NCBI GenBank assembly: GCA_027448785.1
Contig: DAIDMW010000001.1
Coordinates: forward strand, 1,668 to 65,667
Direction: 5' to 3'
DNA from: Candidatus Colwellbacteria bacterium
Lineage (GTDB): Bacteria > Patescibacteriota > Minisyncoccia > UBA6257 > Colwellbacteraceae
Length of the DNA: 64,000 bases
Made by a program: the position numbers and the translations under genes
Shown: positions 3,949 through 59,806 of the stretch, in pieces
How positions within the stretch are numbered: position 1 is the first letter of the stretch
Layout: each line of letters begins with the position of its first letter
The notes under the pieces: model-generated
What the model saw: the letters and a program-made list of their open reading frames with translations, nothing else
The model's database searches: none
Told to the model about the DNA's origin: nothing

Positions 3949-4020
3949 GGCCTGGTAGCCAAGTGGTAAGGCGAAGGTCTGCAAAACCTTTATACGCGGG
4001 TTCGATTCCCGCCCAGGCCT
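3949..4020 (+). tRNA. tRNA-Cys (anticodon GCA)
   Basis: Acceptor stem GGCCTGG/CCAGGCC. Anticodon stem AAGGT/ACCTT with loop CTGCAAA. T-arm GCGGG-TTCGATT-CCCGC. Discriminator T. Confidence 0.85.
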
Positions 4021-15854: not shown

Positions 15855-15883
15855 TTGACAAGTACGCCGCTTATCCTTACTAT
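15855..15883 (+). promoter_or_regulatory. sigma70-like promoter upstream of 16S (TTGACA-17 nt-TACTAT)
   Basis: ttgaca agtacgccgcttatcct tactat read directly, ~75 nt upstream of the 16S 5' end. Confidence 0.5.
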
Positions 15884-15959
15884 ATTTTAGGTCATAAGAC
15901 ATGACTGCTCTTTTGTAAGTTAATAGTAAATGTAGAAACTTTTTAGTTGTTCCAGTCTA

Positions 15960-17536
15960 TTTTTGAGGATTTGATCCTGGTCCAGGATGAACGCTGGCGG
16001 CGTGGATAAGGCATGCAAGTCGAGCGAACCAAATCTTGATGAGATTCGCGGAGTAGCAATACGAAGCGGAAGGAATCTTGGCGAGGTTAGCGGCGAACGA
16101 GTTAGTAATACCTTGGTACGTACCCCGAAGACGGGCATAGTTCGCCGAAAGGCGAAGTAATTCCCGATAGTCCCCGAGAGCAATCAACGGGTAAAGGCGC
16201 AAGCCGCTTTGGGATCGGCCTAGGTCCGATCAGCTAGTTGGTGAGGTAACGGCCCACCAAGGCTATGACCGGTAGGGAGGGTGAGAGCCTGATTCCCAAC
16301 GAGGGCACTGAGACACGGGCCCTACTCCTACGGGAGGCAGCAGTCGAGAATATTCGACAATGGGCGAAAGCCTGATCGAGCGACGCCGCGTGCAGGAAGA
16401 AGTCCTTCGGGATGTAAACTGCTTTTCTACGGGAGAAAGTTCCGGCGCAAGTCGGAATTGATAGTACCGTAGGAATAAGAGGTGGCTAACTTCGTGCCAG
16501 CAGCAGCGGTAATACGAAGGCCTCGAGCGTTATCCGGATTTACTGGGCGTAAAGGGTGCGTAGGGGGCTGGATGCGTCTCTCGTAAAATCTCACCGCTTA
16601 ACGGTGATATCGCGAGGGATACGATCCGGCTAGAAGGTGCGAGAGGTTTGCGGAACGCATGGTGTAGGGGTAATATCCGTTGATATCATGCGGAACACCG
16701 AAGGCGAAGGCAGCAAACTGGCGCATTCTTGACCCTGAGGCACGAAAGCGTGGGGAGCAAAAAGGATTAGATACCCTTGTAGTCCACGCCCTAAACGATG
16801 TTGATTAGCCGTTTTGAGTATCGACCCTCGGAGCGGCGTAGCTAACGCGTTAAATCAACCGCCTGGGAAGTACGAGCGCAAGCTTAAAACTCAAAGGAAT
16901 AGACGGGGACTCGCACAAGCGGAGGAGCATGAGGTTTAATTCGATGGTAAACGAGAAACCTTACCAGGGCTTGAAATGCTAGCGGAAATCCACCAGAAAT
17001 GGAGGATGTCTCTCAAGGACCGCTAGTCCAGGTGCTGCACGGTTGTCGTCAGCTCGTGTCATGAGATGTTCCCTTAAGTGGGGTAACGAGCGCAACCCTT
17101 GTCCCGTGTTACAAGTGTCACGGGAGACCGCCCCCACATTTGTTTTGGAGCCGAGTAATCGGTTCGAAGATAAATGTGGGGGAGGAAGGAGAGGATGACG
17201 TCAAATCAGCGTGGCCTTCTGATGCCCTGGGCGACACTCATGCTGCAATGGCCGGTACAAAGGGTTGCCAAGCCGCAAGGTGGAGCTAATCCCAAAAAGC
17301 CGGCCCCAGTTCGGATTGTGGGCTGCAACCCGCCCGCATGAAGTTGGATTCGCTAGTAATCGTGGATCAGCAGGCCACGGTGAATACGTTCTCGAGTCTT
17401 GTACTCACCGCCCGTCAAGTCAAGGGAGCCGGGAAAGCCTGAAGTGCGCTTCGCGCGTATCAGGGCTGGCTCGGTGACATGGGCTAAGTCGTAACAAGGC
17501 ACGTGTAGCGGAAGCTGTGCGTGGAACAATTAAACT
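15960..17536 (+). rRNA. rrs: 16S ribosomal RNA (divergent; no linked 23S/5S within 0.5 kb)
   Basis: 5' TTTGATCCTGG...GATGAACGCTGGCGGCGTG, 515 region GTGCCAGCAGCAGCGGTAATAC, GGATTAGATACCCTTGTAGTCC, GCATGGTTGTCGTCAGCTCGTG-like, and 3' AAGTCGTAACAAGG. The 3' boundary is uncertain because no GGATCACCTCCTT is present. Confidence 0.9.
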
Positions 17537-18007: not shown

Positions 18008-18403
18008 ATGCCCATTAAGAAGGTTTTGCTTGTGGAAGATGATCCATTCCTGTCTCAGCTCCTGGGAACTCGTTTGCAGCGAGCCGGTTTGGAGGTGGAT
18101 AAGGCTATGGACGGGGAGGAGGCGATGAACTACCTCAAGAACAACAAGCCCGACCTAGTTCTTTTGGACCTCATTCTTCCGAAGAAATCCGGCTTCCAGG
18201 TATTGGAAGAAATGCGCGCTGACCCCCTGGTGAAGGATGCGCCGGTGATCATTATTTCCAATCTTTCGCAGGATTCGGATGTCGCCAAAGGTAAGGAGCT
18301 GGGCGCCGTCGAGTATTACGTTAAAGCTCGAACCTCGATCGACGACTTGGTTTCGCGCATTGTTTCCCTGCTTTTGGACGGATTGAATAAAAGAGCCGTC
18401 TGA
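18008..18403 (+). CDS. single-domain response regulator (CheY-like receiver; PilH/PilG-like by context)
   Basis: VLLVEDDPFLSQLL...DLVLLDLILPKKSGF receiver motifs, 131 aa with no output domain. Sits at the head of the pilus locus. Confidence 0.75.
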   Translation: MPIKKVLLVEDDPFLSQLLGTRLQRAGLEVDKAMDGEEAMNYLKNNKPDLVLLDLILPKKSGFQVLEEMRADPLVKDAPVIIISNLSQDSDVAKGKELGAVEYYVKARTSIDDLVSRIVSLLLDGLNKRAV

Positions 18404-18474: not shown

Positions 18475-19032
18475 GTGAGTAGAGGATTTACGTTGATCGA
18501 GTTGTTGATAGTTATCGCTATCATCGGGATTCTTTCCGCGGCTGTGCTCCTGACCATTAATCCGGGGCAGCTTTTGGCGCAAGCAAGAGACTCGCGCCGC
18601 GTTGACGATCTCGCCAACTTGAATTCGGCCGTCAAGCTGTACTTAGCCGATTTCGCCACCACGACCTGGTCGGCGGCTTACAATTGTACCTCCGGCACCA
18701 CCGCTCCCGGAACGTCGACCGTCGGCGGATGCGCACAGAACCAAACGAAGACGACGGCTGGCGCCGGCTGGGTGCCGATCAATTTCGGGTTAATGACGAT
18801 CAATTCTCCGATCTCCGCGCTGCCGATCGATCCCAGTAACGGCGTTTCTTCCTGCGGCGGAGGCGAGCCGCCGAACGTCTGTTTGTACGCTTACCACTCC
18901 TCTTCGACGATCGGCTTGTACAAGCTCTACGCCAAAATGGAAAGTTCGCGCTACCAGAACAACCAGTCGGTCGGTGACGGTGGATTATACAACGCCTGGT
19001 ACGAGGTTGGCTCTAACTTATCCACACTTTAA
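18475..19032 (+). CDS. type IV pilin (class III signal, MSRG|FTLIELLIVIAIIGIL)
   Basis: Prepilin leader ending in G followed by FTLIE and a hydrophobic helix. GTG start. Confidence 0.8.
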   Translation: MSRGFTLIELLIVIAIIGILSAAVLLTINPGQLLAQARDSRRVDDLANLNSAVKLYLADFATTTWSAAYNCTSGTTAPGTSTVGGCAQNQTKTTAGAGWVPINFGLMTINSPISALPIDPSNGVSSCGGGEPPNVCLYAYHSSSTIGLYKLYAKMESSRYQNNQSVGDGGLYNAWYEVGSNLSTL

Positions 19033-19111
19033 TCTTGGCATAATTATCGGTGTTGCGGTAAAATAACGACAACTCAAAGGACGAGAGTCAAAGGTCAAAA
19101 AATACTCAACA

Positions 19112-19663
19112 ATGCCAAGCAATAAAGGATTTACTTTAATCGAGCTTCTGATCGTCATCGCCATCATCGGAATCCTGGCCGCGGCTGTGGTGTTAGTTCT
19201 TAACCCGGGACAGATTTTCGCCCAGGCTCGGGACTCCCAGCGCATCCAGGATATGTCGACGCTGAATAGCGCCATCAGCCAATGGCTGGCCGACGTCTCG
19301 ACGACCACCTGGAGCGCAGTATGGAACTGCACTTCCGGCACGGTTGCTCCGGGAACCGGAACCTGCACGACGGTAACCTCGCGCGCGGTCGACGGTACCG
19401 GCTGGGTGCCGATCAACTTCAACGCGGTTTCCAGCGGTTCGCCGCTCTCGGTTTTGCCGATGGATCCGTCGAATGGCAGTACTTGCACCAGCGGGCAAAC
19501 CCCAAACATCTGCATGTACTCCTACCACTCCAGCTCAACCTTCGGCCAATATAAGCTTTATGCCAACCTGGAGAGCTCCAAGTACCAGACCACTTACGGA
19601 GCCAACGACGGCGGCACGCTTTCCGGCTGGTACGAGGTCGGAACCAACTTAAGCGGACTCTAA
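19112..19663 (+). CDS. type IV pilin, tandem paralog (MPSNKG|FTLIELLIVIAIIGIL)
   Basis: Same N-terminal signature and shared internal blocks (TTWSA..NCTSGT..GWVPINF..LP.DPSNG) with the upstream pilin. Confidence 0.8.
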   Translation: MPSNKGFTLIELLIVIAIIGILAAAVVLVLNPGQIFAQARDSQRIQDMSTLNSAISQWLADVSTTTWSAVWNCTSGTVAPGTGTCTTVTSRAVDGTGWVPINFNAVSSGSPLSVLPMDPSNGSTCTSGQTPNICMYSYHSSSTFGQYKLYANLESSKYQTTYGANDGGTLSGWYEVGTNLSGL

Positions 19664-19684
19664 TAATCTTTGGAGCCTCGACCG

Positions 19685-19710
19685 AAAACTCCCCTAAGCG
19701 GGGAGTTTTT
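19685..19710 (+). terminator. rho-independent terminator after pilin genes
   Basis: aaaactcccc-taagc-ggggagttttt: 10-bp GC-containing stem followed by a T tract. Confidence 0.7.
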
Positions 19711-19724
19711 GATTAGAAGAGAAA

Positions 19725-19830
19725 AAAGCGTAAAGCGAAAAGCTTAAAGCGCAAAACTAAAAGCGCAAAATTTAAAAGAACCGGCGACTAACGGCCACTC
19801 GATGTTTTTCACTTTTAGCTTTGAGCTTCT
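19725..19830. repeat. intergenic repeat element E8
   Basis: aaaagcgtaaagcgaaaagcttaaagcgcaaaactaaaagcgcaaaat...ccggcgactaacggcc...ttttcacttttagctttgagc. Its right arm supplies the annotated ATG of the next ORF. Confidence 0.75.
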
Positions 19831-20476
19831 TTTTACTTCGCCGACCGCATTATTTGGTATATTATTGGTTATGATGTTGATCGATGCATTTGTTTTGACG
19901 CGTTTCCACTTTCTAGCGCTTCTGACCCTGATTTTTTTAGGAGTTTTTACCGCCCAGGTTCTTTATCGTTGCGGAAAAATAAAAAATACTAAAATCTTCC
20001 GCGCTTTTTTCTGGTTTTCACTAATCTTCCCCTTCCTTTACTACATTTACCTGACTATCGCCCAGTACTTTATGTGGAAAACCGAGGGTGGCTTAGGCAA
20101 GTTTTTACTGCCGCCGTATGTCGGTGCAAGTTATGTCATCGGCTACCACTTCATACGCTTTTACCTTTACTACCTCATCTCTGCGGCGGTCGGAACCTTG
20201 TTCCTGCTAGCCGCGGTCTATCTGAACAAAAAGTTCGGCCGGCGCTTTTTCGAGGATGAGGAGCCGTATCTCGGGGCCGGCGCCATATCTTTGGTCGGCT
20301 ACCCAGGATTTTTCTTCTACCTTGTTGCACTGTTTTCCAGTCAGTTGGTTTTAACCGCCGGGCGATATCTGCTTACCAGAAAAAGCGAGCGCGTTCCGTT
20401 TTATTACTTATGGTTGCCGGCCGGCGTATTTGTTATACTACTCATATATCATTACCGTTTGTTTTATTTTAGCTGA
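19802..20476 (+). CDS. polytopic membrane protein, possible short A24 prepilin peptidase (PilD-like)
   Basis: Multi-TM protein between the pilins and pilB. LIDAFV and GAGAISLVGY are loosely reminiscent of PilD Asp-containing motifs. The true start may be the MML.. Met near 19872, since the first 10 codons are repeat-derived. Confidence 0.3.
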   Translation: MFFTFSFELLFTSPTALFGILLVMMLIDAFVLTRFHFLALLTLIFLGVFTAQVLYRCGKIKNTKIFRAFFWFSLIFPFLYYIYLTIAQYFMWKTEGGLGKFLLPPYVGASYVIGYHFIRFYLYYLISAAVGTLFLLAAVYLNKKFGRRFFEDEEPYLGAGAISLVGYPGFFFYLVALFSSQLVLTAGRYLLTRKSERVPFYYLWLPAGVFVILLIYHYRLFYFS

Positions 20477-22185
20477 TGCTAAGAGTCCCCGAGGACAAGA
20501 TTAAAGAACTAGTGGTCGGCGAGGGTTTGATTACTCCCGCTGATTTCGACACCCTGCTAGCCGAGGCCAAGCGCTTGGGTCAGAGCATCGAGGATGCGCT
20601 CATCTCCCGCAATATCATCACCGAAAGCTACCTGAACAACTTCCTTTCCAAATATTTCAATATTCCTTTAGCCAACCTGACCGCCGAAAACATCAACCGC
20701 GACGTTTTAAAACTGTTGCCGGAAAGCGTCGCGCGCGAAAAACGCGTTGTCCTTTTCAACCAAGAAACTGACGGCACGCTGGACGCCGCTTTCGAGGATC
20801 CGAGCGACTTAGTAACACTGGAGTATCTGACGAGTTATCTGAAAGCGAAAATCCGGCCTTTTCTGGCTACTACCGACGATTTGAACAAAGGTTTCTCTCT
20901 TTACGGGTCGGCGGCCGCGGAAAACTATATTAAGCTGATCGAGGAAAATGTGCGCGCCTCCCTTTTGAGTAGAAGCCATGGAGAGGAGGCGGCCGGCGAG
21001 GTGCCGATAGTGGCCATCGTCGACAACATCCTTTCATACGGCTTGTCGCTGCGCGCCTCCGACATACACCTGGAAGTTCTGGAGGCCGAGGTCCTCGTCC
21101 GGTACCGCATCGACGGCATCCTGCACGAGATGTTCAAGGTGCCGAAGGAGGTTTTTCCGGCGATCGTCGCCCGCATCAAGCTCTTGGGCAGCCTAAAGAT
21201 CGACGAACACTACAAACCGCAGGACGGAAGGTTCCGCTACAAGATCGGCGAGGATGTAGTTGATGTCAGAATCTCGATTATTCCGACCTTCTACGGTGAG
21301 AAGATCGAGATGAGGTTGTTGCCGGCGACGACTAGGCCTCTTTCCTTTGCCGAACTTGGGATGATGGAGGATACCGCTAATCTCTTGACCGAGAATATCA
21401 AAAAAAGCTACGGCATGGTTCTGGTTTGCGGTCCGACCGGCTCCGGCAAGACCACGACCCTGTATTCGGTTATTAACGTTTTAAATCACCCCGAGGTGAA
21501 CATCGTCACCATCGAGGATCCGATCGAGTACAATATTAAATACATAAACCAAATTCAGGTCAACACCGCGGCCGGAATAACTTTCGCCGATGGGCTGCGC
21601 TCAATTCTGCGCCAAGACCCGAACATCATTATGGTCGGTGAGATGCGCGACGAGGAGACGGCGAGCATCGGCGTGCAGTCGGCTTTGACCGGACACTTGG
21701 TCTTGAGCTCGCTGCACACCAGCGACGCCCCGACCGCCGTTCCGCGGTTGATGGACATGAACGTCGAGCCTTATTTGGTGGCCGCGGTTTTGAACGCCGT
21801 TCTCGCCCAGCGTCTGGTCCGGAAAATCCATCTGGGCTGCATCGAGTCTTACGAACCGAGCGATCAGGAGATTAAAGCGATCCAGAGCCAAATCAAAGAG
21901 GCCGGGCTCGATCCGGAAAAATACCCGATTCCAAAACAGCTGTACCGCGGCAAGGGATGCGCCGCCGACGGTTTTACCGGATACTCCGGCAGAGTCGGCA
22001 TTTTTGAGCTGCTAAGCGTTTCAGAAAAAGTCCGCGAGCTTATCGTCAGTCCCAACTTCACTTTCGATAACCTGCGCGCACTGGCGAAACAGGAGGGAAT
22101 GGTCTCGATGTTCGAAGACGGACTGCGCAAGGCCGAGCTCGGCGTAACCACCATCGACGAGGTCCTGCGGGTGATCGGAGAATAA
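20476..22185 (+). CDS. pilB: type IV pilus assembly ATPase PilB/GspE family
   Basis: N-terminal GspII_E-like domain, Walker A VCGPTGSGKTTTLYSVIN, Asp/His boxes, and a tetracysteine-like C-terminal region. Confidence 0.85.
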   Translation: MLRVPEDKIKELVVGEGLITPADFDTLLAEAKRLGQSIEDALISRNIITESYLNNFLSKYFNIPLANLTAENINRDVLKLLPESVAREKRVVLFNQETDGTLDAAFEDPSDLVTLEYLTSYLKAKIRPFLATTDDLNKGFSLYGSAAAENYIKLIEENVRASLLSRSHGEEAAGEVPIVAIVDNILSYGLSLRASDIHLEVLEAEVLVRYRIDGILHEMFKVPKEVFPAIVARIKLLGSLKIDEHYKPQDGRFRYKIGEDVVDVRISIIPTFYGEKIEMRLLPATTRPLSFAELGMMEDTANLLTENIKKSYGMVLVCGPTGSGKTTTLYSVINVLNHPEVNIVTIEDPIEYNIKYINQIQVNTAAGITFADGLRSILRQDPNIIMVGEMRDEETASIGVQSALTGHLVLSSLHTSDAPTAVPRLMDMNVEPYLVAAVLNAVLAQRLVRKIHLGCIESYEPSDQEIKAIQSQIKEAGLDPEKYPIPKQLYRGKGCAADGFTGYSGRVGIFELLSVSEKVRELIVSPNFTFDNLRALAKQEGMVSMFEDGLRKAELGVTTIDEVLRVIGE

Positions 22186-22302
22186 AGTGCAAAACTTAAA
22201 GCGCAAAGTGTAAGGCGAAAGGCGCAAAATAACGGCGGGTCGCTAGTCGTCGGATCTTTTAAAGTTTGCGCCTTTAGTTTTGCGCTTTTATCTTTTCGCT
22301 TT
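22186..22302. repeat. intergenic repeat element E9
   Basis: agtgcaaaacttaaagcgcaaag...gtcgctagtcgtcggatc...gtttgcgcctttagttttgcgcttttatcttttcgc. Confidence 0.75.
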
Positions 22303-22373
22303 AAAATAAAAAGCAGAAGCCACTTAGGTTTTTCCAAAAACGTTATAAAAGGAAGGAAATTTTATTCAAACCA

Positions 22374-23585
22374 ATGCGTTTTCGCTATGTAGCATCCGAT
22401 CCCAACGGCAGGTTGATGGAAGGGTACGTCGAAGCCAAGAGCCCGGCGGAGGTTCTGGAGTGGATGGGCGGGCAAAACTGGAAGCCGATATCGCTCAAGG
22501 CGATCCGCCAGACCGAGACCCAGAAGTTTTTCGGCGGATTGCAGCAAGGAGGGATTACCATCGCCGACCAGGTTTTCCTCACTAAATATCTGGCGCTGAT
22601 GCTTAAAGTCGGCACAGACCTTTTTAAAGCTATCGACATTCTGGTGGAAGACTTTGACAAGCCGGCGGTCAAGTCGTTTCTTATGGAAGTGCGCGACGCC
22701 CTAAGTAAAGGGCAGCCGTTTTATACCTCTTTTTCGCGCTATCCCAAGTACTTTTCTCCAGTTTTCATCAATATGGTCAAGGCGGGGGAGAGCTCCGGCA
22801 ACCTGGAAAAAGTCTTCGGAGACCTGAGTGCCTCGCTGCAAAAGCAGCAGGAGATACGCGACAAGATCCGGGCGGCGCTGATCTATCCTGTCATATTGTT
22901 GATCATGGCTTCGGTCATCCTACTGGTTATGGTGACCTTCATCCTGCCGAGAATCGCCAGCACTTTCTTGAGCTCGGGAATCAACCCGCCGATCTTCACC
23001 AAAATCGTTTTCGGCGTTGGTCTGTTTATCGGCGGAAACATCGCGATTATCCTGCCTTTGATTATCGCGGCGGCCGTCGGTTTGTGGATTTTTTTTCGTA
23101 CCGCGGGCGGCAAAAAGTTCCTCAGTCAAACGCTTTCCCGCACTCCTGTTGTCAAAGACGTCGTGGCGAAAATGGCTCTGCAACGCTTTTCCGCGACTTT
23201 TGCTTCTCTACTGCGCTCCGGCCTGCCCATCCTTGACGCTTTGGAAATAACCGCCGGCGCCTCCGGCTCCACCGAGATGGAGGCGGCCTTGGACCGCATC
23301 GCCAGGGAGGGGGTGGCCAAGGGGCTAACGATCGGCGATTCCTTCCGCCGCGAGACCGTTTTCCCGAGAGTGGTGGTCAACTTGATAACCATCTCGGAAA
23401 AAGCAGGACACATGGAAAATATCCTGGACACGCTCTCCGACTTCTACGCCGCCGAGATCGACTCCTCCATCAAGATTCTAATGTCCTTCTTGGAGCCGGC
23501 ACTTCTGCTGATAATGGGTATCATGGTCGGCGGAATCGCCTTGTCGATCATCGTTCCGATCTACCAGCTAACCGCCCAATATTAA
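22374..23585 (+). CDS. pilC: type IV pilus platform protein PilC/GspF family
   Basis: Two GspF repeats, three TM segments, ~400 aa, directly downstream of pilB. Confidence 0.85.
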   Translation: MRFRYVASDPNGRLMEGYVEAKSPAEVLEWMGGQNWKPISLKAIRQTETQKFFGGLQQGGITIADQVFLTKYLALMLKVGTDLFKAIDILVEDFDKPAVKSFLMEVRDALSKGQPFYTSFSRYPKYFSPVFINMVKAGESSGNLEKVFGDLSASLQKQQEIRDKIRAALIYPVILLIMASVILLVMVTFILPRIASTFLSSGINPPIFTKIVFGVGLFIGGNIAIILPLIIAAAVGLWIFFRTAGGKKFLSQTLSRTPVVKDVVAKMALQRFSATFASLLRSGLPILDALEITAGASGSTEMEAALDRIAREGVAKGLTIGDSFRRETVFPRVVVNLITISEKAGHMENILDTLSDFYAAEIDSSIKILMSFLEPALLLIMGIMVGGIALSIIVPIYQLTAQY

Positions 23586-23588
23586 AAA

Positions 23589-24077
23589 ATGATAAGCAAT
23601 AAGGGTTTTACTCTAATCGAGCTGCTGATAGTCATGTCGATCATGGCGATAATCGCCGTCGTCACCCTGCCTAACTTCTTCAGCTCCCGTTACCGCTACT
23701 CTTTAAATAAGGACGCCGAGGGCTTGGCCTACGGCATCCGCGCCGCCATTTCCAATTCACAGACGCAGCTGAACGCCAGCCGCTGGGGCATTCGCCTGAG
23801 CAACAACACCTCGACCGGCGGCTACTATTACCAGCTGTGGTACGGCACCTCGACCTACGCTTACGGCACACCGTCGACTCTGACGCCGCTAGACCAAGGT
23901 ATTAGTTTTTCCGGTATTGCGCTTGGCTCGGCTGTGGATATCTGCTTCGCTCAAATCAGCGGCCTGCCGGTGGACTGTTCGACCGGCCTCGGCACCTCGA
24001 CGGCGATTACTTTAAGCGCCATCGGCGGCCAGCAAACAACGGTGACGCTGAATGCCAACGGGACGGTCAACTACTAA
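23589..24077 (+). CDS. type IV pilin-like protein (MISNKG|FTLIELLIVMSIMAII)
   Basis: Class III signal peptide and N-terminal helix. Ser/Thr/Gly-rich globular part. Confidence 0.7.
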   Translation: MISNKGFTLIELLIVMSIMAIIAVVTLPNFFSSRYRYSLNKDAEGLAYGIRAAISNSQTQLNASRWGIRLSNNTSTGGYYYQLWYGTSTYAYGTPSTLTPLDQGISFSGIALGSAVDICFAQISGLPVDCSTGLGTSTAITLSAIGGQQTTVTLNANGTVNY

Positions 24078-43917: not shown

Positions 43918-44478
43918 ATGACTGAATCTACTTTGAAACCGGAAAAAACCGGAACGAGGAGTTGGTATGCTGTGCACACCTATTCTGGCTACGAAGACGC
44001 CGTCGCCCGGTATTTGAAGCAGCGTGTTGAGTCTCTTTCGATGGGCGACAAGATCTTCAACATTGTGGTCCCGATCGAGAAGAAGATAAAGATTAAAGGA
44101 GGCAAGCGCTACGTCGTCGAGGAGAAGATTTACCCGAGCTATGTCCTGGTGGAGATGATGATGGAACCTGATTCGTGGTACGTCGTCCGCAACACGCCGC
44201 GGGTTACCGGTTTCGTCGGACCAGATCCGGCCAATCCCACCCCCCTTTCCTACGAAGAGGTGGAATCGATCAAAGCCCGTATGGGCGAGGCCGAGCCGAA
44301 GATGAAAATTGATTTGCGCCCGGGAGATGTGGTAAAAATCACCGACGGCCCGTTCAAGGATTACGACGGCAAGATCTCGGAGGTTGACGAGGAGAAGGGC
44401 CGCATCAAGGTGATGGTCCCGGTCTTCGGTCGCGACACCGCCGTGGAGCTGGATTCGCTCCAGGTTAAAAAGATTTAA
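43918..44478 (+). CDS. nusG: transcription termination/antitermination factor NusG
   Basis: WYAVHTYSGYEDAV NGN domain and C-terminal KOW (GDVVKITDGPFKDYDGKI). Confidence 0.85.
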   Translation: MTESTLKPEKTGTRSWYAVHTYSGYEDAVARYLKQRVESLSMGDKIFNIVVPIEKKIKIKGGKRYVVEEKIYPSYVLVEMMMEPDSWYVVRNTPRVTGFVGPDPANPTPLSYEEVESIKARMGEAEPKMKIDLRPGDVVKITDGPFKDYDGKISEVDEEKGRIKVMVPVFGRDTAVELDSLQVKKI

Positions 44479-44484
44479 AATAAT

Positions 44485-44913
44485 ATGGCTAACAAACCGA
44501 TAAAAACGATAATCAAACTACAGCTCGAGGCCGGAAAAGCCAATCCAGCGCCTCCGGTCGGAACCGCGCTCGGTCCCCAGGGTATAAATATCCAGGACTT
44601 CTGCAAGCAGTTCAACGACGCGACCAAGGATATGGGAACGGACATCGTACCCGCCGAGATCACGATTTATGAGGACCGCAGCTTCGATTTTAAACTGAAG
44701 ACTCCTCCAGCTTCCGACCTGCTGCGCAAAGCGGCTGGCGTCGCCAAGGGGTCGGCGGTGCCCAACAAAAACAAGATAGGCCGGATTACTCCGGAAGACA
44801 TCCGGAAAATCGCCGAGCGCAAGATGGTTGACCTGAACGCCGAGGATATCGAGGCGGCGGAAAAGATCGTCGCTGGAACCGCCCGCTCGATGGGCATCGA
44901 GATTACCAAATAA
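44485..44913 (+). CDS. rplK: 50S ribosomal protein L11
   Basis: [26 protein letters not shown] is a highly conserved L11 N-terminus. Confidence 0.9.
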
Positions 44914-45029: not shown

Positions 45030-46463
45030 ATGCTTAAGCCAACTATCGGACTGGAAATACACGCGGAGCTGCGCACGAAGACAAAAATGTTTTGCGGCTG
45101 TCCGAACGATCCCGAGGAGCGTCACCCGAACGTCAATACCTGCCCGGTCTGTCTGGCTCACCCTGGAGTCTTGCCGACCGCTAACGCCGAGGCGATCAAG
45201 GCGGTTTTGAAGCTGGGTTTGGCCGTCGGCGGAGAGCTGCCGACCCGCGCCAAATTCGACCGCAAGAGCTACTTCTACCCCGACCTACCTAAGGGTTATC
45301 AAATCAGTCAGTACGACGAGCCTTTGGTATTGGGCGGCGAGTTGGCTGGTATAAAAATCAGGCGCGTCCACCTGGAGGAGGATACGGCTAGGCTTTCTCA
45401 CGCCGCGGACGGATCGGGCTCGCTCATCGATTTTAATCGTGCCGGCGTTCCTTTGATGGAACTTGTCACCGAGCCGGTAATCCACTCGGCCGAGGCTGCG
45501 CTTAATTTCGCCAGAGAATTACAGCTTCTGCTGCGCTATCTGGGGATCTCCAACGCCGAGATGGAGAACGGAGAGATGCGCATCGAGGCGAACATCTCCA
45601 TGGCTGAAGAGGGCGCCAGCTCTTTCGGAACCAAAGTCGAAGTAAAAAATATCAATTCGTTCAAGGCGGTGGAGGGAGCGGTCGCTTACGAACTAGAGAG
45701 GCAGGCTAAGGCGATCTCCGCGGGAGAAAGAATCGTCCAGGAAACGAGAGGGTGGGATACTGTTGGCAACCGGACCGTCAGTCAGCGCGTCAAAGAAGAA
45801 GCGCACGACTACCGCTATATGCCAGAGCCCGATATTCCGCCTCTGGACTTTGGCGCACCTAACGCGATCGACCTAACTATACTTAAAACCCTTATACCCG
45901 AACTGCCATGGGACAAAAGAAAAAGGTTTATCAACGAGTACAAGTTGGAGCCGGAACAGTCGGAGTTTCTCGCCGCCGATCCTGCTACCGCCGATTTCTT
46001 CGAGGAAGCCGTCTCGGAGTTCGCCGCCGATGGCGCTTCCGGAACGAAAACGCTCTTCAACTATCTTTCCTCTGATCTGCAAGGCCTTTTAAACGACGCC
46101 AACCTCCGCATCGGTGATAAAGATTTTAAAATAACGCCGGAAAAATTTGCCGATCTGGTAAGTCTGGTTGTGAAGCAGGAGATAACCAGCCGTTTGGCGA
46201 AAAACGTTTTATCAGAGATGTTTAAGACGGGCTTGGATGCGCACCAGATTATTTCTCAGATGGGGTTGGAGGAGTTCGGCGGGGGTGATCGTCTGCAGGA
46301 AATAGTCCGCGCGGCGGTGGCGAATAATTCGAAAGCCGTCGATGATTTCAAAAAAGGCAAAGAGAACGCCTTGCAGTTCCTGACTGGCCGGGTGATGGCC
46401 GCGACCAAAGGCAGCGCCAAACCGGAGGAGGTGCGAGCTGCGCTGTTAAAAGAATTGAAATAA
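45030..46463 (+). CDS. gatB: aspartyl/glutamyl-tRNA amidotransferase subunit B
   Basis: GLEIHAELRTKTKMFCGCPN N-terminus and C-terminal GatB/YqeY domain. Confidence 0.85.
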   Translation: MLKPTIGLEIHAELRTKTKMFCGCPNDPEERHPNVNTCPVCLAHPGVLPTANAEAIKAVLKLGLAVGGELPTRAKFDRKSYFYPDLPKGYQISQYDEPLVLGGELAGIKIRRVHLEEDTARLSHAADGSGSLIDFNRAGVPLMELVTEPVIHSAEAALNFARELQLLLRYLGISNAEMENGEMRIEANISMAEEGASSFGTKVEVKNINSFKAVEGAVAYELERQAKAISAGERIVQETRGWDTVGNRTVSQRVKEEAHDYRYMPEPDIPPLDFGAPNAIDLTILKTLIPELPWDKRKRFINEYKLEPEQSEFLAADPATADFFEEAVSEFAADGASGTKTLFNYLSSDLQGLLNDANLRIGDKDFKITPEKFADLVSLVVKQEITSRLAKNVLSEMFKTGLDAHQIISQMGLEEFGGGDRLQEIVRAAVANNSKAVDDFKKGKENALQFLTGRVMAATKGSAKPEEVRAALLKELK

Positions 46464-56612: not shown

Positions 56613-58352
56613 ATGCATAAAGATATCTTTAGTTTTCGACGATACTTTACCGCCTTGGCTTTAAGTTTTTCTTTATTAGGTTTACCTTTTAACTTTACCT
56701 CTCAGCCAGCATTACAAGCAGCCGAGAGCGGAAATGTTTTTAGTGGCGTAGAATCTTTTTTTAATAATGTTTGGCAAGGCTTGTTTCCAAAGCCGGCGGT
56801 CCAGGAAACAACAGCCGTCGTCCAACCGGCTCCGCCTCCGCCGATGCCGACAGGGAAGAATAGTCCGCTCTTGCCGCTTTCCCCGGCCAAGCCCACCCTG
56901 CCGCAGGGAGACCAAACCTACCGAATCGTACAAGGAGTGAATGTTTGGCCAAAAATACTAACAGCTCAGATCAATCCCGTTGATGTCGAGGTCGGTAACA
57001 CCCAGACTTTCAACTTAACTATCGAGACGCCGGTTGCCATCTCCGCGGTTGAGGCGATCATCCAGACCGACCACGGATCGGAACATTTGATGCTTAAGAA
57101 GACCAGCGCGGCCGCCACAGCGACAGTTTCATCACCTGATTTATATCTAAACCAGAAAAATCAAATCGTTCTCGGCCAGCCCAGCGGAGGATTGTTACCG
57201 GTGGCTGAAGCAAGCCAGCAGTTGTACACCGAAGACTTCGCCGGCTCGTGGCAAGTCAAGGACACGCACAATAGCACCTATCACACGACATTTCTCGCCA
57301 CCGACGTTCTGGGTCGCAGCAGCTCGGTTACTCTAGCCTGGTCAGATGCTTGCGGGATTCCCAATGGCGGAAGTTACAATCTTTCTTCCAACTGCACCAT
57401 TTCATCGGTGGACGGCGTGGATAACGGCAGCTTTACCGTCGCTTCCGGATATACGCTAACTCTCGATTCAACTTTTGCTTTCAATCCCGGACAGAATATC
57501 ACGGTCAACGGGAGTATAGCTTTCGGGAGTGGAGGGCAGATTGAGAAGACTTATCTTTGGATGATCGACTCCGATGCAGACGGCTATGCCGCTAACTCGA
57601 CGGAATATGCTCAAGCGACAGCGCCGGCCGGAGGCCGAAGAAGGTATTTGCTGGTGACCGGCGAGTATGATTGCAACGATTCCAATGCTTCTATTTATCC
57701 AGGCGTAGTAACGTCGGTTGGCGCTTGCGGGTCTTGTAGCTACTCCTCGAGTTGCACGAATTCCGGCAGCGGAACCGACTCTTACACAGAGTGTACCGCA
57801 AGCGGAGCATATCAGACTTACAGCGGATCTTGCTCTTGTTCGAGAAACACCAATGGGGTGTCGTGCGGATCTAGTTGCGGTGTTTGGGGTTCGTGTGTTG
57901 CCAGTGGTTCTAGTGGAAGCGCGTATTGTAATGGTGTGGAAAGTCAAACTTGCACCAGTTACGCCTGCTCTAGTGGCAGTTGTGTTGCCAGCAGTAACTA
58001 CACCAACACCCAGTCGTGCGGAGCGGTTAACAACGGTTCGTCTTGCGAACCATCAACCACGGCCTGTTCCGGATCTAGTGCCGTCTATACATACGTTCAC
58101 GTTTGTAGTAGCGGATCGTGCGTGCAAAACACGGTTGGACCAACAACTTGCACTTGTGGATGCAGCAACGGAAGTTGTACGCCGGTTTATCCTTGTGGTC
58201 GTTGTAGTAATAATGTTGCTTGTTCATATGCAACATTTGACTCTTGCAATTCATCTTGCAGTAGCCCGTTCAATATAAGCTACTCGCAAAACAACGGTTG
58301 CACCGGGTTATGCGGCGGAAAGGGTTGCTGTTCTGGCGCCTGCTGCCCATAA
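56613..58352 (+). CDS. large secreted Cys-rich MopE-like protein (module 2, gene B; paralog of 53636..55801)
   Basis: Shares VWPKI..INPVD, LAWSDACGIPNGGSY, YLWMIDSDADGYAANS..DCNDSNASIYPG and a C-terminal Cys-rich tail ending SPFNISYS...CCP. Confidence 0.5.
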   Translation: MHKDIFSFRRYFTALALSFSLLGLPFNFTSQPALQAAESGNVFSGVESFFNNVWQGLFPKPAVQETTAVVQPAPPPPMPTGKNSPLLPLSPAKPTLPQGDQTYRIVQGVNVWPKILTAQINPVDVEVGNTQTFNLTIETPVAISAVEAIIQTDHGSEHLMLKKTSAAATATVSSPDLYLNQKNQIVLGQPSGGLLPVAEASQQLYTEDFAGSWQVKDTHNSTYHTTFLATDVLGRSSSVTLAWSDACGIPNGGSYNLSSNCTISSVDGVDNGSFTVASGYTLTLDSTFAFNPGQNITVNGSIAFGSGGQIEKTYLWMIDSDADGYAANSTEYAQATAPAGGRRRYLLVTGEYDCNDSNASIYPGVVTSVGACGSCSYSSSCTNSGSGTDSYTECTASGAYQTYSGSCSCSRNTNGVSCGSSCGVWGSCVASGSSGSAYCNGVESQTCTSYACSSGSCVASSNYTNTQSCGAVNNGSSCEPSTTACSGSSAVYTYVHVCSSGSCVQNTVGPTTCTCGCSNGSCTPVYPCGRCSNNVACSYATFDSCNSSCSSPFNISYSQNNGCTGLCGGKGCCSGACCP

Positions 58353-58359
58353 TATTAGC

Positions 58360-59004
58360 GTGCGAAAAATAATCGGCATCGACGAGGTTGGAAGAGGAGC
58401 GTTGGCCGGACCGGTGGTGGTTGCGGCCGTGATGATTCCCGAAAAGTATTTTCCACGCCCACCGAAAAGTTTAAAGCTGCCGCCGCTTCGCGATTCGAAA
58501 AAATTAACCAAGCGCGGCCGGGAAGCGTGGTCGGAGTATTTAAAAACCGATCCGCGGATCGAATGGCGTTTGGCGCGCGTTTATCCGGAAAAAATCGACA
58601 AACTAAACATCTCTCGCGCCGCCAATCTGGCTGCCACCAACGCCTTAAAACGTCTCCTGCAAAATATCAACTATCGGAACGATCGTTCCGATAGTTGTCT
58701 GGTAAAAGTGTTTTTAGACGGAGGATTGTATGTTTCCGAAGGAAAAATTGCGAACTTCCGCGCGAGACGAAGAAAATTAACCGTTAAAACCGTAATTAAG
58801 GGCGACGAGAAATACACTTCCGTAAAACTAGCCTCGATAATCGCCAAAGTTCACCGCGATCACTACCTAATGAAGTTAAAAAACAGATATCCACACTTTA
58901 GCTTCGACGTTCACAAGGGTTACGGAACAAAAAAACACATCGAAGAAATAAAAAAATTCGGAGCTAGCGATGTTCATCGCAAAAATTTCTTGAAAAACCT
59001 TTGA
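58360..59004 (+). CDS. rnhB: ribonuclease HII
   Basis: IGIDEVGRGALAGPVVVAAV catalytic N-terminus. GTG start, TGA stop. Confidence 0.85.
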   Translation: MRKIIGIDEVGRGALAGPVVVAAVMIPEKYFPRPPKSLKLPPLRDSKKLTKRGREAWSEYLKTDPRIEWRLARVYPEKIDKLNISRAANLAATNALKRLLQNINYRNDRSDSCLVKVFLDGGLYVSEGKIANFRARRRKLTVKTVIKGDEKYTSVKLASIIAKVHRDHYLMKLKNRYPHFSFDVHKGYGTKKHIEEIKKFGASDVHRKNFLKNL

Positions 59005-59030
59005 CATGTTTTAATTTGTTTTTGTATAAT
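59001..59030 (+). promoter_or_regulatory. near-consensus sigma70 promoter TTGACA-18-TATAAT
   Basis: ttgaca tgttttaatttgtttttg tataat, ~72 nt upstream of the small basic ORF. Confidence 0.55.
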
Positions 59031-59102
59031 TAAAACGTAATAAAATTTTCGCAAAAAATATCCGACACACAAAGGTCGAGAAGAAAAAAAGATTGCATTG
59101 AA

Positions 59103-59228
59103 ATGGCAGCTAAGAAAAAAGCTCCGGCTCGTCGCAAGACGGTCGCTAAGAAGACCACTAAGAAGGTCGTAAAGAAGACCGCCAAGAGGACCGCTGCGAA
59201 GAGGCCGGCTAAGAGGAAGAGCCGGTAA
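59103..59228 (+). CDS. 41-aa Lys/Ala-rich highly basic protein (histone H1/Hc-like tail), not in ORF track
   Basis: MAAKKKAPARRKTVAKKTTKKVVKKTAKRTAAKRPAKRKSR translated manually. Flanked by a consensus promoter and an intrinsic terminator. Confidence 0.55.
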   Translation: MAAKKKAPARRKTVAKKTTKKVVKKTAKRTAAKRPAKRKSR

Positions 59229-59240
59229 GGCTCAACTAAA

Positions 59241-59272
59241 ACAAGGAGCGAGTAATCGCTCCTTGTTTTTAT
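59241..59272 (+). terminator. rho-independent terminator
   Basis: caaggagcg-agtaat-cgctccttg followed by ttttt. Confidence 0.65.
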
Positions 59273-59296
59273 TTCCTCCCGAGTTATAAATAAATT

Positions 59297-59806
59297 ATGA
59301 GTAAAAAAACAATTACTATCGTATTTCCAGCGATAATTTTAGTTCTAGCTGTCGTCGTTTTCTTCGCCGCGAGGAGTATGAGCGTTAAAAACAACATAAC
59401 CGGAACCCCGATATCCGAAGGGAACTACGGCTCTACCTCGACTACCTCCACCGCCTTAACTGCAACGCCGGGAACCTCTTTGTTTATGGTCGAATCGACC
59501 AGTGGACAGAGCTATCTAGCCGACGGGAACGGGATGACGCTATACGCTTTCAACCGCGATAGCGCCGGAACGAGCTCCTGCTACGGCCAGTGCGCCATTA
59601 TTTGGCCGCCTTACCTTATAAATTCTACCAGTTCGGCGCAGAACTTGCCGTCCGCGGCTGGATATATAACCCGTACCGACGGCACGATCCAGCTGACTTG
59701 GAACGGAAAGCCGCTTTACTATTACTCTAAAGATCAAAACCCTGGCGAAATGCTGGGTAACGGATTCGATGGCTTGTGGCACATCGTGCCAGTCAGCGGA
59801 CTTTAG
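59297..59806 (+). CDS. secreted COG4315-like protein with two Yx(FWY)xxD-type repeats
   Basis: Signal peptide. GMTLYAFNRDS...CYGQC and GKPLYYYSKDQNPGEMLGNG match the lipoprotein Y-x-[FWY] repeat family pattern. Confidence 0.45.
   Translation: MSKKTITIVFPAIILVLAVVVFFAARSMSVKNNITGTPISEGNYGSTSTTSTALTATPGTSLFMVESTSGQSYLADGNGMTLYAFNRDSAGTSSCYGQCAIIWPPYLINSTSSAQNLPSAAGYITRTDGTIQLTWNGKPLYYYSKDQNPGEMLGNGFDGLWHIVPVSGL

Follow-up and report, generated by a model that had tools for sequence, protein, structure and literature searches.

The promoter, reading frame and terminator downstream of rnhB

The window is a stretch of 64,000 nucleotides (nt) of a Candidatus Colwellbacteria contig (DAIDMW010000001.1). 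Its positions 59001-59274 form a self-contained single-gene transcription unit composed of a promoter, an unstructured leader, an open reading frame (ORF) of 41 codons for a strongly basic peptide, and an intrinsic terminator. The unit starts within the end of rnhB, the RNase HII gene, whose TGA stop codon (59002-59004) lies inside the -35 hexamer. The features of the locus are:

58360-59004, upstream of the small ORF: rnhB, coding for RNase HII (Pfam RNase_HII, E=2.7e-33)
59001-59006, + strand: -35 hexamer TTGACA, invariant in 6/6 aligned loci as AAAC..TTGACAT
59025-59030, + strand: -10 hexamer TATAAT after an 18-nt spacer, in a context TTGTAT(A/T)ATTAA that is invariant in 6 loci
59037-59102, + strand: inferred 5' leader of about 66 nt, A-rich and with no Shine-Dalgarno (SD) motif, its start being deduced from the promoter
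59071-59078, + strand: leader octamer AAAGGTCG, identical in 6/6 loci, 21-24 nt 5' of the ATG
59103-59228, + strand: coding sequence of the 41-amino acid (aa) polycationic peptide MAAKKKAPARRKTVAKKTTKKVVKKTAKRTAAKRPAKRKSR, with ATG at 59103 and TAA at 59226-59228
59238-59274, + strand: intrinsic terminator made of a hairpin and TTTTTATTT; the hairpin spans 59238-59269 and has 14 pairs by the tool used

The initial annotation had recognized a TTGACA-18-TATAAT promoter at 59001-59030, an A-rich leader leading to the ORF at 59103-59228, and a GC-stem/T5 terminator at 59241-59272. The coordinates of the promoter, leader and ORF are correct, the promoter matches the sigma-70 consensus at 12/12 positions, and a strong hairpin with T5 was found at 59238-59269. 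There is one TTGACA-N16-18-TATAAT in the 64 kb, where shuffled sequences predict 0.02, and it is the sole perfect consensus of the window. The single further TTGACA..TAnnnT lies about 75 nt 5' of the 16S rRNA gene. The G+C core of the terminator stem, CAAGGAGCGA/TCGCTCCTTG, occupies 59242-59265 with a GTAA loop; it is followed by T5 at 59266-59270, then an A and then TTT. This layout of promoter, ORF and terminator is beyond chance.

The peptide MAAKKKAPARRKTVAKKTTKKVVKKTAKRTAAKRPAKRKSR contains 14 Lys, 6 Arg, 9 Ala, 5 Thr, 3 Val, 2 Pro, 1 Ser and 1 Met, with a net charge of about +20. If its own by-product in the +1 frame is set aside, no second ORF of 20-90 codons in the window reaches 45% Lys+Arg while lacking acidic residues. 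AAG is used for 12 of the 14 Lys codons, compared to 48% in the window genes (p=0.004). AlphaFold2, run on the single sequence, predicts one helix over residues 9-33 with a mean predicted local distance difference test (pLDDT) score of 83, which reads as helical propensity rather than a stable fold. The ORF starts at a conserved ATG with an in-frame stop upstream, and so is complete rather than part of a longer gene.

Conservation of the small ORF and of its expression signals

Orthologues were located by synteny from RNase HII relatives in a genome collection and in a protein collection. The order rnhB, small ORF, Lipoprotein_15 gene is found in every relative whose RNase HII is at least about 72% identical. 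The comparison set is one clade with six distinct peptides (window, L003 and L008 to L011) and the near-identical variant L026. RNase HII identities below come from one alignment with the window as reference:

L003: RNase HII 94%; peptide of 41 aa with the single change R29K relative to the window
L026: RNase HII 94%; peptide of 41 aa, as L003 with A31T in addition
L008: RNase HII 76%; MAAKKKTARRKTAAKKTVKRKTAKKTTKKTTKRKTAKRSRR, 41 aa
L009: RNase HII 75%; MAAKKKTARRKTTAKKTVKKTTKRKPARKKKR, 32 aa
L011: RNase HII 72%; MATKKKAPARRKTAAKKTTKKVVRKTVKKTVKKAVKKTAARKPAKRKSR, 49 aa
L010: RNase HII 71%; MPAKKKVARRKPAAKKKTVKRKVAKKTTKKAVKKTTTKRKKSRR, 44 aa

The orthologues are thus 32-49 aa long, and every insertion or deletion (indel) consists of whole codons. 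L011 has 8 extra codons formed by repeats of the (VKKT)n type, and a single block of ten codons has been lost from L009. Conservation extends to the ATG and to the N-terminus MAAKKKxARRK(T)xAK (M1, K4-K6, A-R-R-K and A-K). All six peptides have 49-56% Lys+Arg (49% in the window) and no Asp, Glu, aromatic residue, Leu, Ile or Cys, the remainder being Ala, Thr, Val and Pro. The basic residues are paired, with autocorrelation maxima at lags 4-5 in each of the six orthologues. Composition is kept while the length and sequence of the peptide drift: its identity is 63-66% between the two subgroups of the clade, where that of RNase HII is about 72-75%. The initial annotation had named frame-shifting indels in close relatives as the observation that would speak against the ORF; in all the relatives found the frame is kept with in-frame indels only, and so are the promoter and the terminator.

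Differences at third codon positions are 2-4 times commoner than at first and second positions. The ratio of non-synonymous to synonymous substitution rates (dN/dS) ranges from 0.08 to 0.31, and between the two subgroups dS is saturated. An open frame on the antisense strand shares its wobble positions with the sense frame in the six loci, so that the third-position excess and dN/dS alone do not choose the strand. What singles out the sense strand is the conserved ATG and N-terminus, together with where the ORF begins and ends and which way the promoter and terminator point. This comparative evidence shows a protein-coding gene on which purifying selection acts and whose position and expression signals are conserved in a narrow clade.

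The signals around the ORF follow the same pattern in the six aligned loci. The promoter hexamers are invariant and the spacer between them differs between the two subgroups. The leader is 63-72 nt long in all loci, with length differences that are not multiples of three. The octamer AAAGGTCG is identical across loci although the flanking leader has diverged, and it occurs a single time in the window; it may be a regulatory site, which is speculation. A strong hairpin followed by a T run is present about 10-24 nt past the stop codon in 6/6 orthologous loci, and the 70 nt after the stop fold with minimum free energies of -23 to -31 kcal/mol. The stem sequences are unrelated between the group window/L003/L011, L008, L009 and L010, yet the hairpin is always there, indicating conservation of the structure but not of the sequence.

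The initial annotation called the ORF unannotated. No source names it or assigns it to a family, and to that extent the description stands; it does not hold for gene calling, as the JGI caller predicts the 41-aa ORF on the same contig (L001). A gene is also called in L026 (JGI) and in the Logan contigs L008 (41 aa) and L011 (49 aa). No gene is called at the slot in the NCBI metagenome-assembled genome record behind L010, and an ORF of the opposite strand is called instead in L009.

The family could be traced only where RNase HII is at least about 72% identical. The window comes from a Paceibacteria-like member of the Patescibacteria. The best named RNase HII relatives are about 50% identical and belong to Paceibacterota, Wolfebacteria and Liptonbacteria of the Patescibacteria group. 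In relatives with about 50-55% RNase HII identity, the slot after rnhB is occupied by rpmF or mreC. The gene rpmF, coding for bL32, directly follows rnhB at L018 1785-2075, L019 3127-3431 and L023 3115-3343, with nusB, rnc and smc next in order; these three loci have no Lys-rich ORF. L021 has mreC in the slot.

Translation signals

The 3' end of the 16S rRNA (17497-17536; gene 15959-17536) reads GGAACAAUUAAACU, compared to GGAUCACCUCCUUU in the bacterial model, and has no CCUCC anti-SD. An SD-like motif is found 6-16 nt before the start codon in 6 of 55 likely genes of the window. The missing SD before the small ORF is no objection to its translation because the 16S rRNA is devoid of anti-SD and most genes are devoid of SD. 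A-rich unstructured leaders are expected to favour SD-independent initiation. RNAalifold found 0 conserved pairs in the leader and first codons of the orthologues. A hairpin that would bring an SD near the start codon was considered by eye and dropped, the organism having no anti-SD.

The RNA of leader and ORF together (59037-59228) is more stable than dinucleotide shuffles, with z scores of -3.35 for the window and -1.87 for L008. Its predicted pairings differ among the folded orthologues. A possible source of the extra stability is the complementarity of Val (GTC) and Thr (ACC) codons interspersed with AAG repeats.

Database and literature searches

Pfam hmmscan revealed no relevant family for the window peptide (E<=1) or for the six orthologues (E<=10), a negative made weak by composition-bias filters. 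The peptide has no match in NCBIfam or in the PDB. The same databases gave no match to the small ribosomal proteins bL32-bL36, bS21, bS22 and bTHX. Linker histone H1/H5 (PF00538) is not matched in Pfam, and a 41-aa peptide with a single predicted helix leaves no room for a winged-helix domain. HU/IHF (PF00216) has no match in Pfam or NCBIfam either, and there is no HU fold N-terminal to the peptide. Rfam 15, run over 58800-59500, gives as best hit the terminator hairpin against a model of a plastid 3' untranslated region, at 26.6 bits for a gathering score of 55.8.

Sequence searches by word-index phmmer with the peptide, by hmmsearch with the six-sequence alignment (E<=10) and by phmmer against 1.84 billion representatives gave nothing. 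An exact look-up found none of the seven peptides in a collection of 15 billion protein sequences. The empty protein searches are uninformative because the peptides are absent from the collection and because a low-complexity query of 41 aa cannot reach significance. No such peptide was found described in the literature on lysine-rich, histone-like, nucleoid or small ribosomal proteins of Patescibacteria and the Candidate Phyla Radiation (CPR).

A scan of metagenome DNA for the pattern M[AP][AT]KKKx(1-2)ARRK identified 6 loci. A comparable stand-alone polycation gene is found only in L015 and L017, the remaining loci being unrelated ORFs, and viral contigs gave one irrelevant match to the pattern. 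The L015 gene (5343-5492, - strand) has an identical copy in L017 (766-915) and codes for the 49-aa polycation MPAKKKPARRKKAALKRKPARKKAAKRSCRKRPCRRPAKRKPAKKRKRR. It stands alone, with a promoter-like site TTGACT..TATAAT, about 85 nt of leader and a strong terminator. As judged by eye from translations, its neighbours are a gene for a ribosome-hibernation-factor-like protein on one side and a murB-like gene on the other, and a secA-like gene is found further out. It is a similar gene; homology cannot be shown for such sequences.

Proposed function and comparison with known polycations

We favour, giving it about an even chance, the hypothesis that the small gene codes for an abundant stand-alone polycation that binds nucleic acid electrostatically, by analogy to the tail of histone H1 and to Hc2. 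The expression signals suggest that the product is made in large amounts. The free peptide would be disordered and could turn helical on a polyanion. Its charge of about +20, carried by Lys/Arg pairs placed every 4-5 residues and spaced by Ala, Thr, Val and Pro, would allow binding to the phosphate backbone with no sequence specificity. Once bound, the peptide would neutralise charge and condense the nucleic acid, the same principle as in the C-terminal tail of histone H1, in Hc2/BpH1, and in the Lys-rich tails of mycobacterial HU and Ku. Chromosomal DNA is most likely the main target, with RNA as a possible additional ligand. DNA is favoured because gain and loss of repeat units at constant composition is typical of bulk charge-neutralisers and unlike ribosomal peptides. 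A further step, to which we lend somewhat less credence, is that the peptide could be a minimal 'bacterial protamine' and the main genome-compacting polycation of these cells.

Several families of basic proteins offer terms of comparison. The C-terminal domain of H1 and the Lys-rich tails of HU (MDP1/HupB and Streptomyces HupS), Ku and AlgP are disordered polycations rich in Lys, Ala, Pro and Thr that condense DNA. These tails are attached to a folded DNA-binding or dimerising domain, whereas here the tail is the whole protein and has its own consensus promoter. Eukaryotic protamines, Coxiella ScvA, bS22, bL37 and bTHX are 25-50 aa long, have an extreme pI and act by charge. They are Arg-rich, and the ribosomal ones are fixed in length and sequence; the peptide differs from them in being rich in Lys, Ala and Thr and variable in length. 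To our knowledge, no other bacterial protein that stands alone on the H1-tail/Hc2 principle would be as short.

Hc2 is built of consecutive pentamers with two basic residues and three that are mainly Ala, also Val, Thr or Pro, and has no acidic residues (PMC2848022). Its charge is evenly spaced, its size varies by gain and loss of repeats, and it binds DNA as well as RNA (PMC2848022). The initial annotation had likened the composition of the peptide to H1- and Hc-type proteins, and this comparison is borne out by 49% Lys+Arg, the lack of acidic residues and the basic pairs every 4-5 residues, as in the Hc2 pentamers. Chlamydia Hc2 (hctB) and Bordetella BpH1 (PF07382) are alike to the peptide in their short two-basic repeats with Ala, Val, Thr and Pro, absence of acidic residues and rapid change in length. 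However, Hc2 and its relatives are 149-237 aa long with 36-aa higher-order repeats and conserved non-repeat ends, all missing in the 32-49 aa peptides. The period of Hc2 is strictly 5, that of the peptide 4-5, and there is no significant match to the HC2 model. Hc2, BpH1 and AlgP are 4-6 times longer than the peptide, which is devoid of a globular or dimerisation domain. By analogy, it would bind nucleic acid in the same non-specific electrostatic way as Hc2. At the sequence level, repeats and composition agree with the Hc2/BpH1 family, profile match and size do not, and membership is not demonstrable.

A number of observations weigh against the hypothesis of a bulk nucleic acid-binding polycation. 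Likeness in composition can arise by convergence, and Pfam and NCBIfam give no significant sequence match to any H1-like/Hc family. A role more specific than bulk charge is hinted at by the conservation of the 16 N-terminal residues and by the invariance of the leader motif. No orthologue shows significant avoidance of long A runs, the longest run being at most 6 A. The narrow range over which the family could be traced, the presence of rpmF or mreC in the slot in more distant relatives, and the wobble positions shared with the antisense frame count on the same side.

Alternative explanations

The main rival is a lineage-specific small basic protein bound to the ribosome or rRNA, comparable to bS22, bL37, bTHX and eL41, which would act as a stoichiometric helix and whose leader motif would maybe be autoregulatory. 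We regard this as unlikely, although many properties of the locus agree with it: the peptide is very small and highly basic with a single predicted helix at 9-33, the gene forms a single-gene unit with a promoter nearer to consensus than the site upstream of the 16S gene, the leader octamer is invariant, and rpmF sits in the same post-rnhB slot in relatives with about 50-55% RNase HII identity. To these can be added the ribosome-hibernation-factor-like gene that adjoins the L015 analogue, the succession of rplK and gatB in the window with no rplA between them, and the fact that Hc2-type polycations bind RNA too (PMC2848022). Against it stand the length range of 32-49 aa, normally fixed in ribosomal peptides, and a peptide identity of only 63-66% compared to about 72-75% for RNase HII. 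The peptide has no aromatic residue or Arg-rich motif typical of peptides buried in rRNA, the Pfam, NCBIfam and PDB searches are without a ribosomal family match, and AAAGGTCG is absent from the 16S gene. BLASTP against bL32 of the relatives gives E=0.57, which is no similarity. A degenerate bL32 was rejected on that absence of similarity; no bL32 was found in the window, whose 64 kb have no bearing on the whole genome. Narrowed to a CPR ribosomal or rRNA-bound protein that took the rpmF slot in an organism also deprived of anti-SD and of rplA beside rplK, the proposal becomes quite improbable. If true, it would make the peptide part of a remodelling of the translation apparatus in ultra-small bacteria. 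The charge properties of the peptide fit any polyanion, and it could also serve on polyphosphate granules, in the envelope, or as a cationic peptide acting on the host of a presumably episymbiotic bacterium. AlgP, which is histone H1-like, is said in the title of a paper (PMC9239181) to space polyphosphate granules, and the neighbouring genes are related to envelope and secretion (Lipoprotein_15, a MacB/FtsX ATP-binding cassette (ABC) transporter and a resistance-nodulation-division (RND) adaptor). Secretion is, however, at odds with the lack of a signal peptide, of a hydrophobic segment and of an amphipathic hydrophobic face (Leu, Ile, Phe and Trp are all absent). A promoter and terminator of its own set the gene apart from the transporter genes, which are on the opposite strand and in no common operon with it; we hold such other roles to be very unlikely.

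Two further explanations, each of which we give a very slight chance, dispense with a functional free peptide. The ORF could be a regulatory leader peptide, ribosome stalling on Lys codons controlling read-through of the terminator into the Lipoprotein_15 gene (attenuation). A short ORF rich in one residue, with a terminator about 10-24 nt past its stop and a gene of the same strand behind it, bears a superficial resemblance to an attenuator. Purifying selection nevertheless keeps the sequence of the peptide, which is enriched in Arg, Ala and Thr besides Lys, and no conserved antiterminator pairing exists, the stems being unrelated though the ORFs are similar. The downstream gene appears to have its own -10-like box (TATAAT in L008, where the gene lies about 170 nt past the stop of the small ORF; TATAAA 6 nt before the ATG in the window), which, with the unrelated terminator stems, argues against an attenuator, and it codes for a secreted-repeat protein of the Lipoprotein_15 family with no link to lysine metabolism. 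The unit might otherwise encode no such peptide at all, being a small RNA, a hydrophobic ORF of 51 aa on the opposite strand (59030-59185) or a chance AAG-rich ORF. In favour of this, the antisense frame is open in 6/6 loci with the shared wobble positions, one gene caller picked the opposite-strand ORF in L009, and the RNA of leader and ORF folds more stably than shuffles, by the z scores given above. Yet the antisense frame has no conserved start codon (in L009 it is without any ATG, GTG or TTG), opens exactly at the sense stop in L008, L009 and L010, and is frameshifted between the window and L011 in its part overlapping the leader. In each locus the promoter and the terminator are oriented with the sense ORF. 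Conservation of frame spans exactly the sense ATG to the sense stop, while length differences in the leader are not multiples of three. A small RNA is further disfavoured by the lack of an Rfam match and of a conserved structure in the leader and first codons.

Other features of the window and of related contigs

In the window (59284-59299), a -10-like TATAAA ends 6 nt before the ATG of the Lipoprotein_15 gene that follows the small ORF. In L008 a TATAAT lies 7 nt before the ATG (about 2320-2339). These positions suggest that the Lipoprotein_15 mRNA could be leaderless or nearly so, which would fit an organism devoid of anti-SD. Contig L002 (ENA contig k141_368085) is an assembly chimera at about 420-440, where the promoter, small ORF and start of the lipoprotein gene are followed by reverse-complement rnhB; rnhB therefore appears downstream on the opposite strand there.

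Within rnhB, positions 58668-58697 form a perfect 30-nt palindrome, CAACTATCGGAACGATCGTTCCGATAGTTG, located in a variable loop with a 4-5 aa insertion. At the same place of rnhB, L010 (2909-2942) carries a palindrome of 34 nt, also perfect, with other arms and the same centre ACGATCGT. Neither palindrome nor insertion is present in L008, L009 and L011. Upstream of rnhB, 56613-58352 codes for a protein of 579 aa with a signal-like N-terminus and a C-terminal half rich in Cys, Ser and Gly, with many CxxC and CSS motifs. This protein is without a Pfam match and has a conserved counterpart of 583 aa in L003.

The 16S rRNA gene stands alone, with a promoter-like TTGACA-17-TACTAT at 15855-15883. The next gene codes for a response regulator (18008-18403). 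No match to 23S or 5S rRNA was found anywhere in the window, and Rfam found one tRNA only (3949-4020). A type IV pilus-like cluster at 18475-24077 codes for three proteins with an N-terminal methylation motif (pilin-like), a T2SSE ATPase and a T2SSF platform protein. The genes nusG (43918-44478) and rplK (uL11, 44485-44913) are followed directly by gatB (45030-46463), and rplA (uL1) is not there. Normally rplA follows rplK; some Parcubacteria are reported to be without uL1.

Significance for Patescibacteria

Lys-rich nucleic acid-binding proteins are familiar. Here such a protein would stand alone in a short form, in a poorly understood lineage, with a gene that is probably highly expressed. 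Standard pipelines miss the peptide through length cut-offs, its absence from large collections, low-complexity filtering and, in some cases, spurious calls on the opposite strand. The gene of this +20 polycation carries the best consensus promoter in 64 kb, above the promoter-like site 5' of the 16S gene. Patescibacteria are a huge, almost uncultivated group of extremely small cells whose DNA packing and ribosome content are poorly known. If the peptide is as abundant as its signals suggest, it would be a candidate major component of their nucleoid or ribosome.

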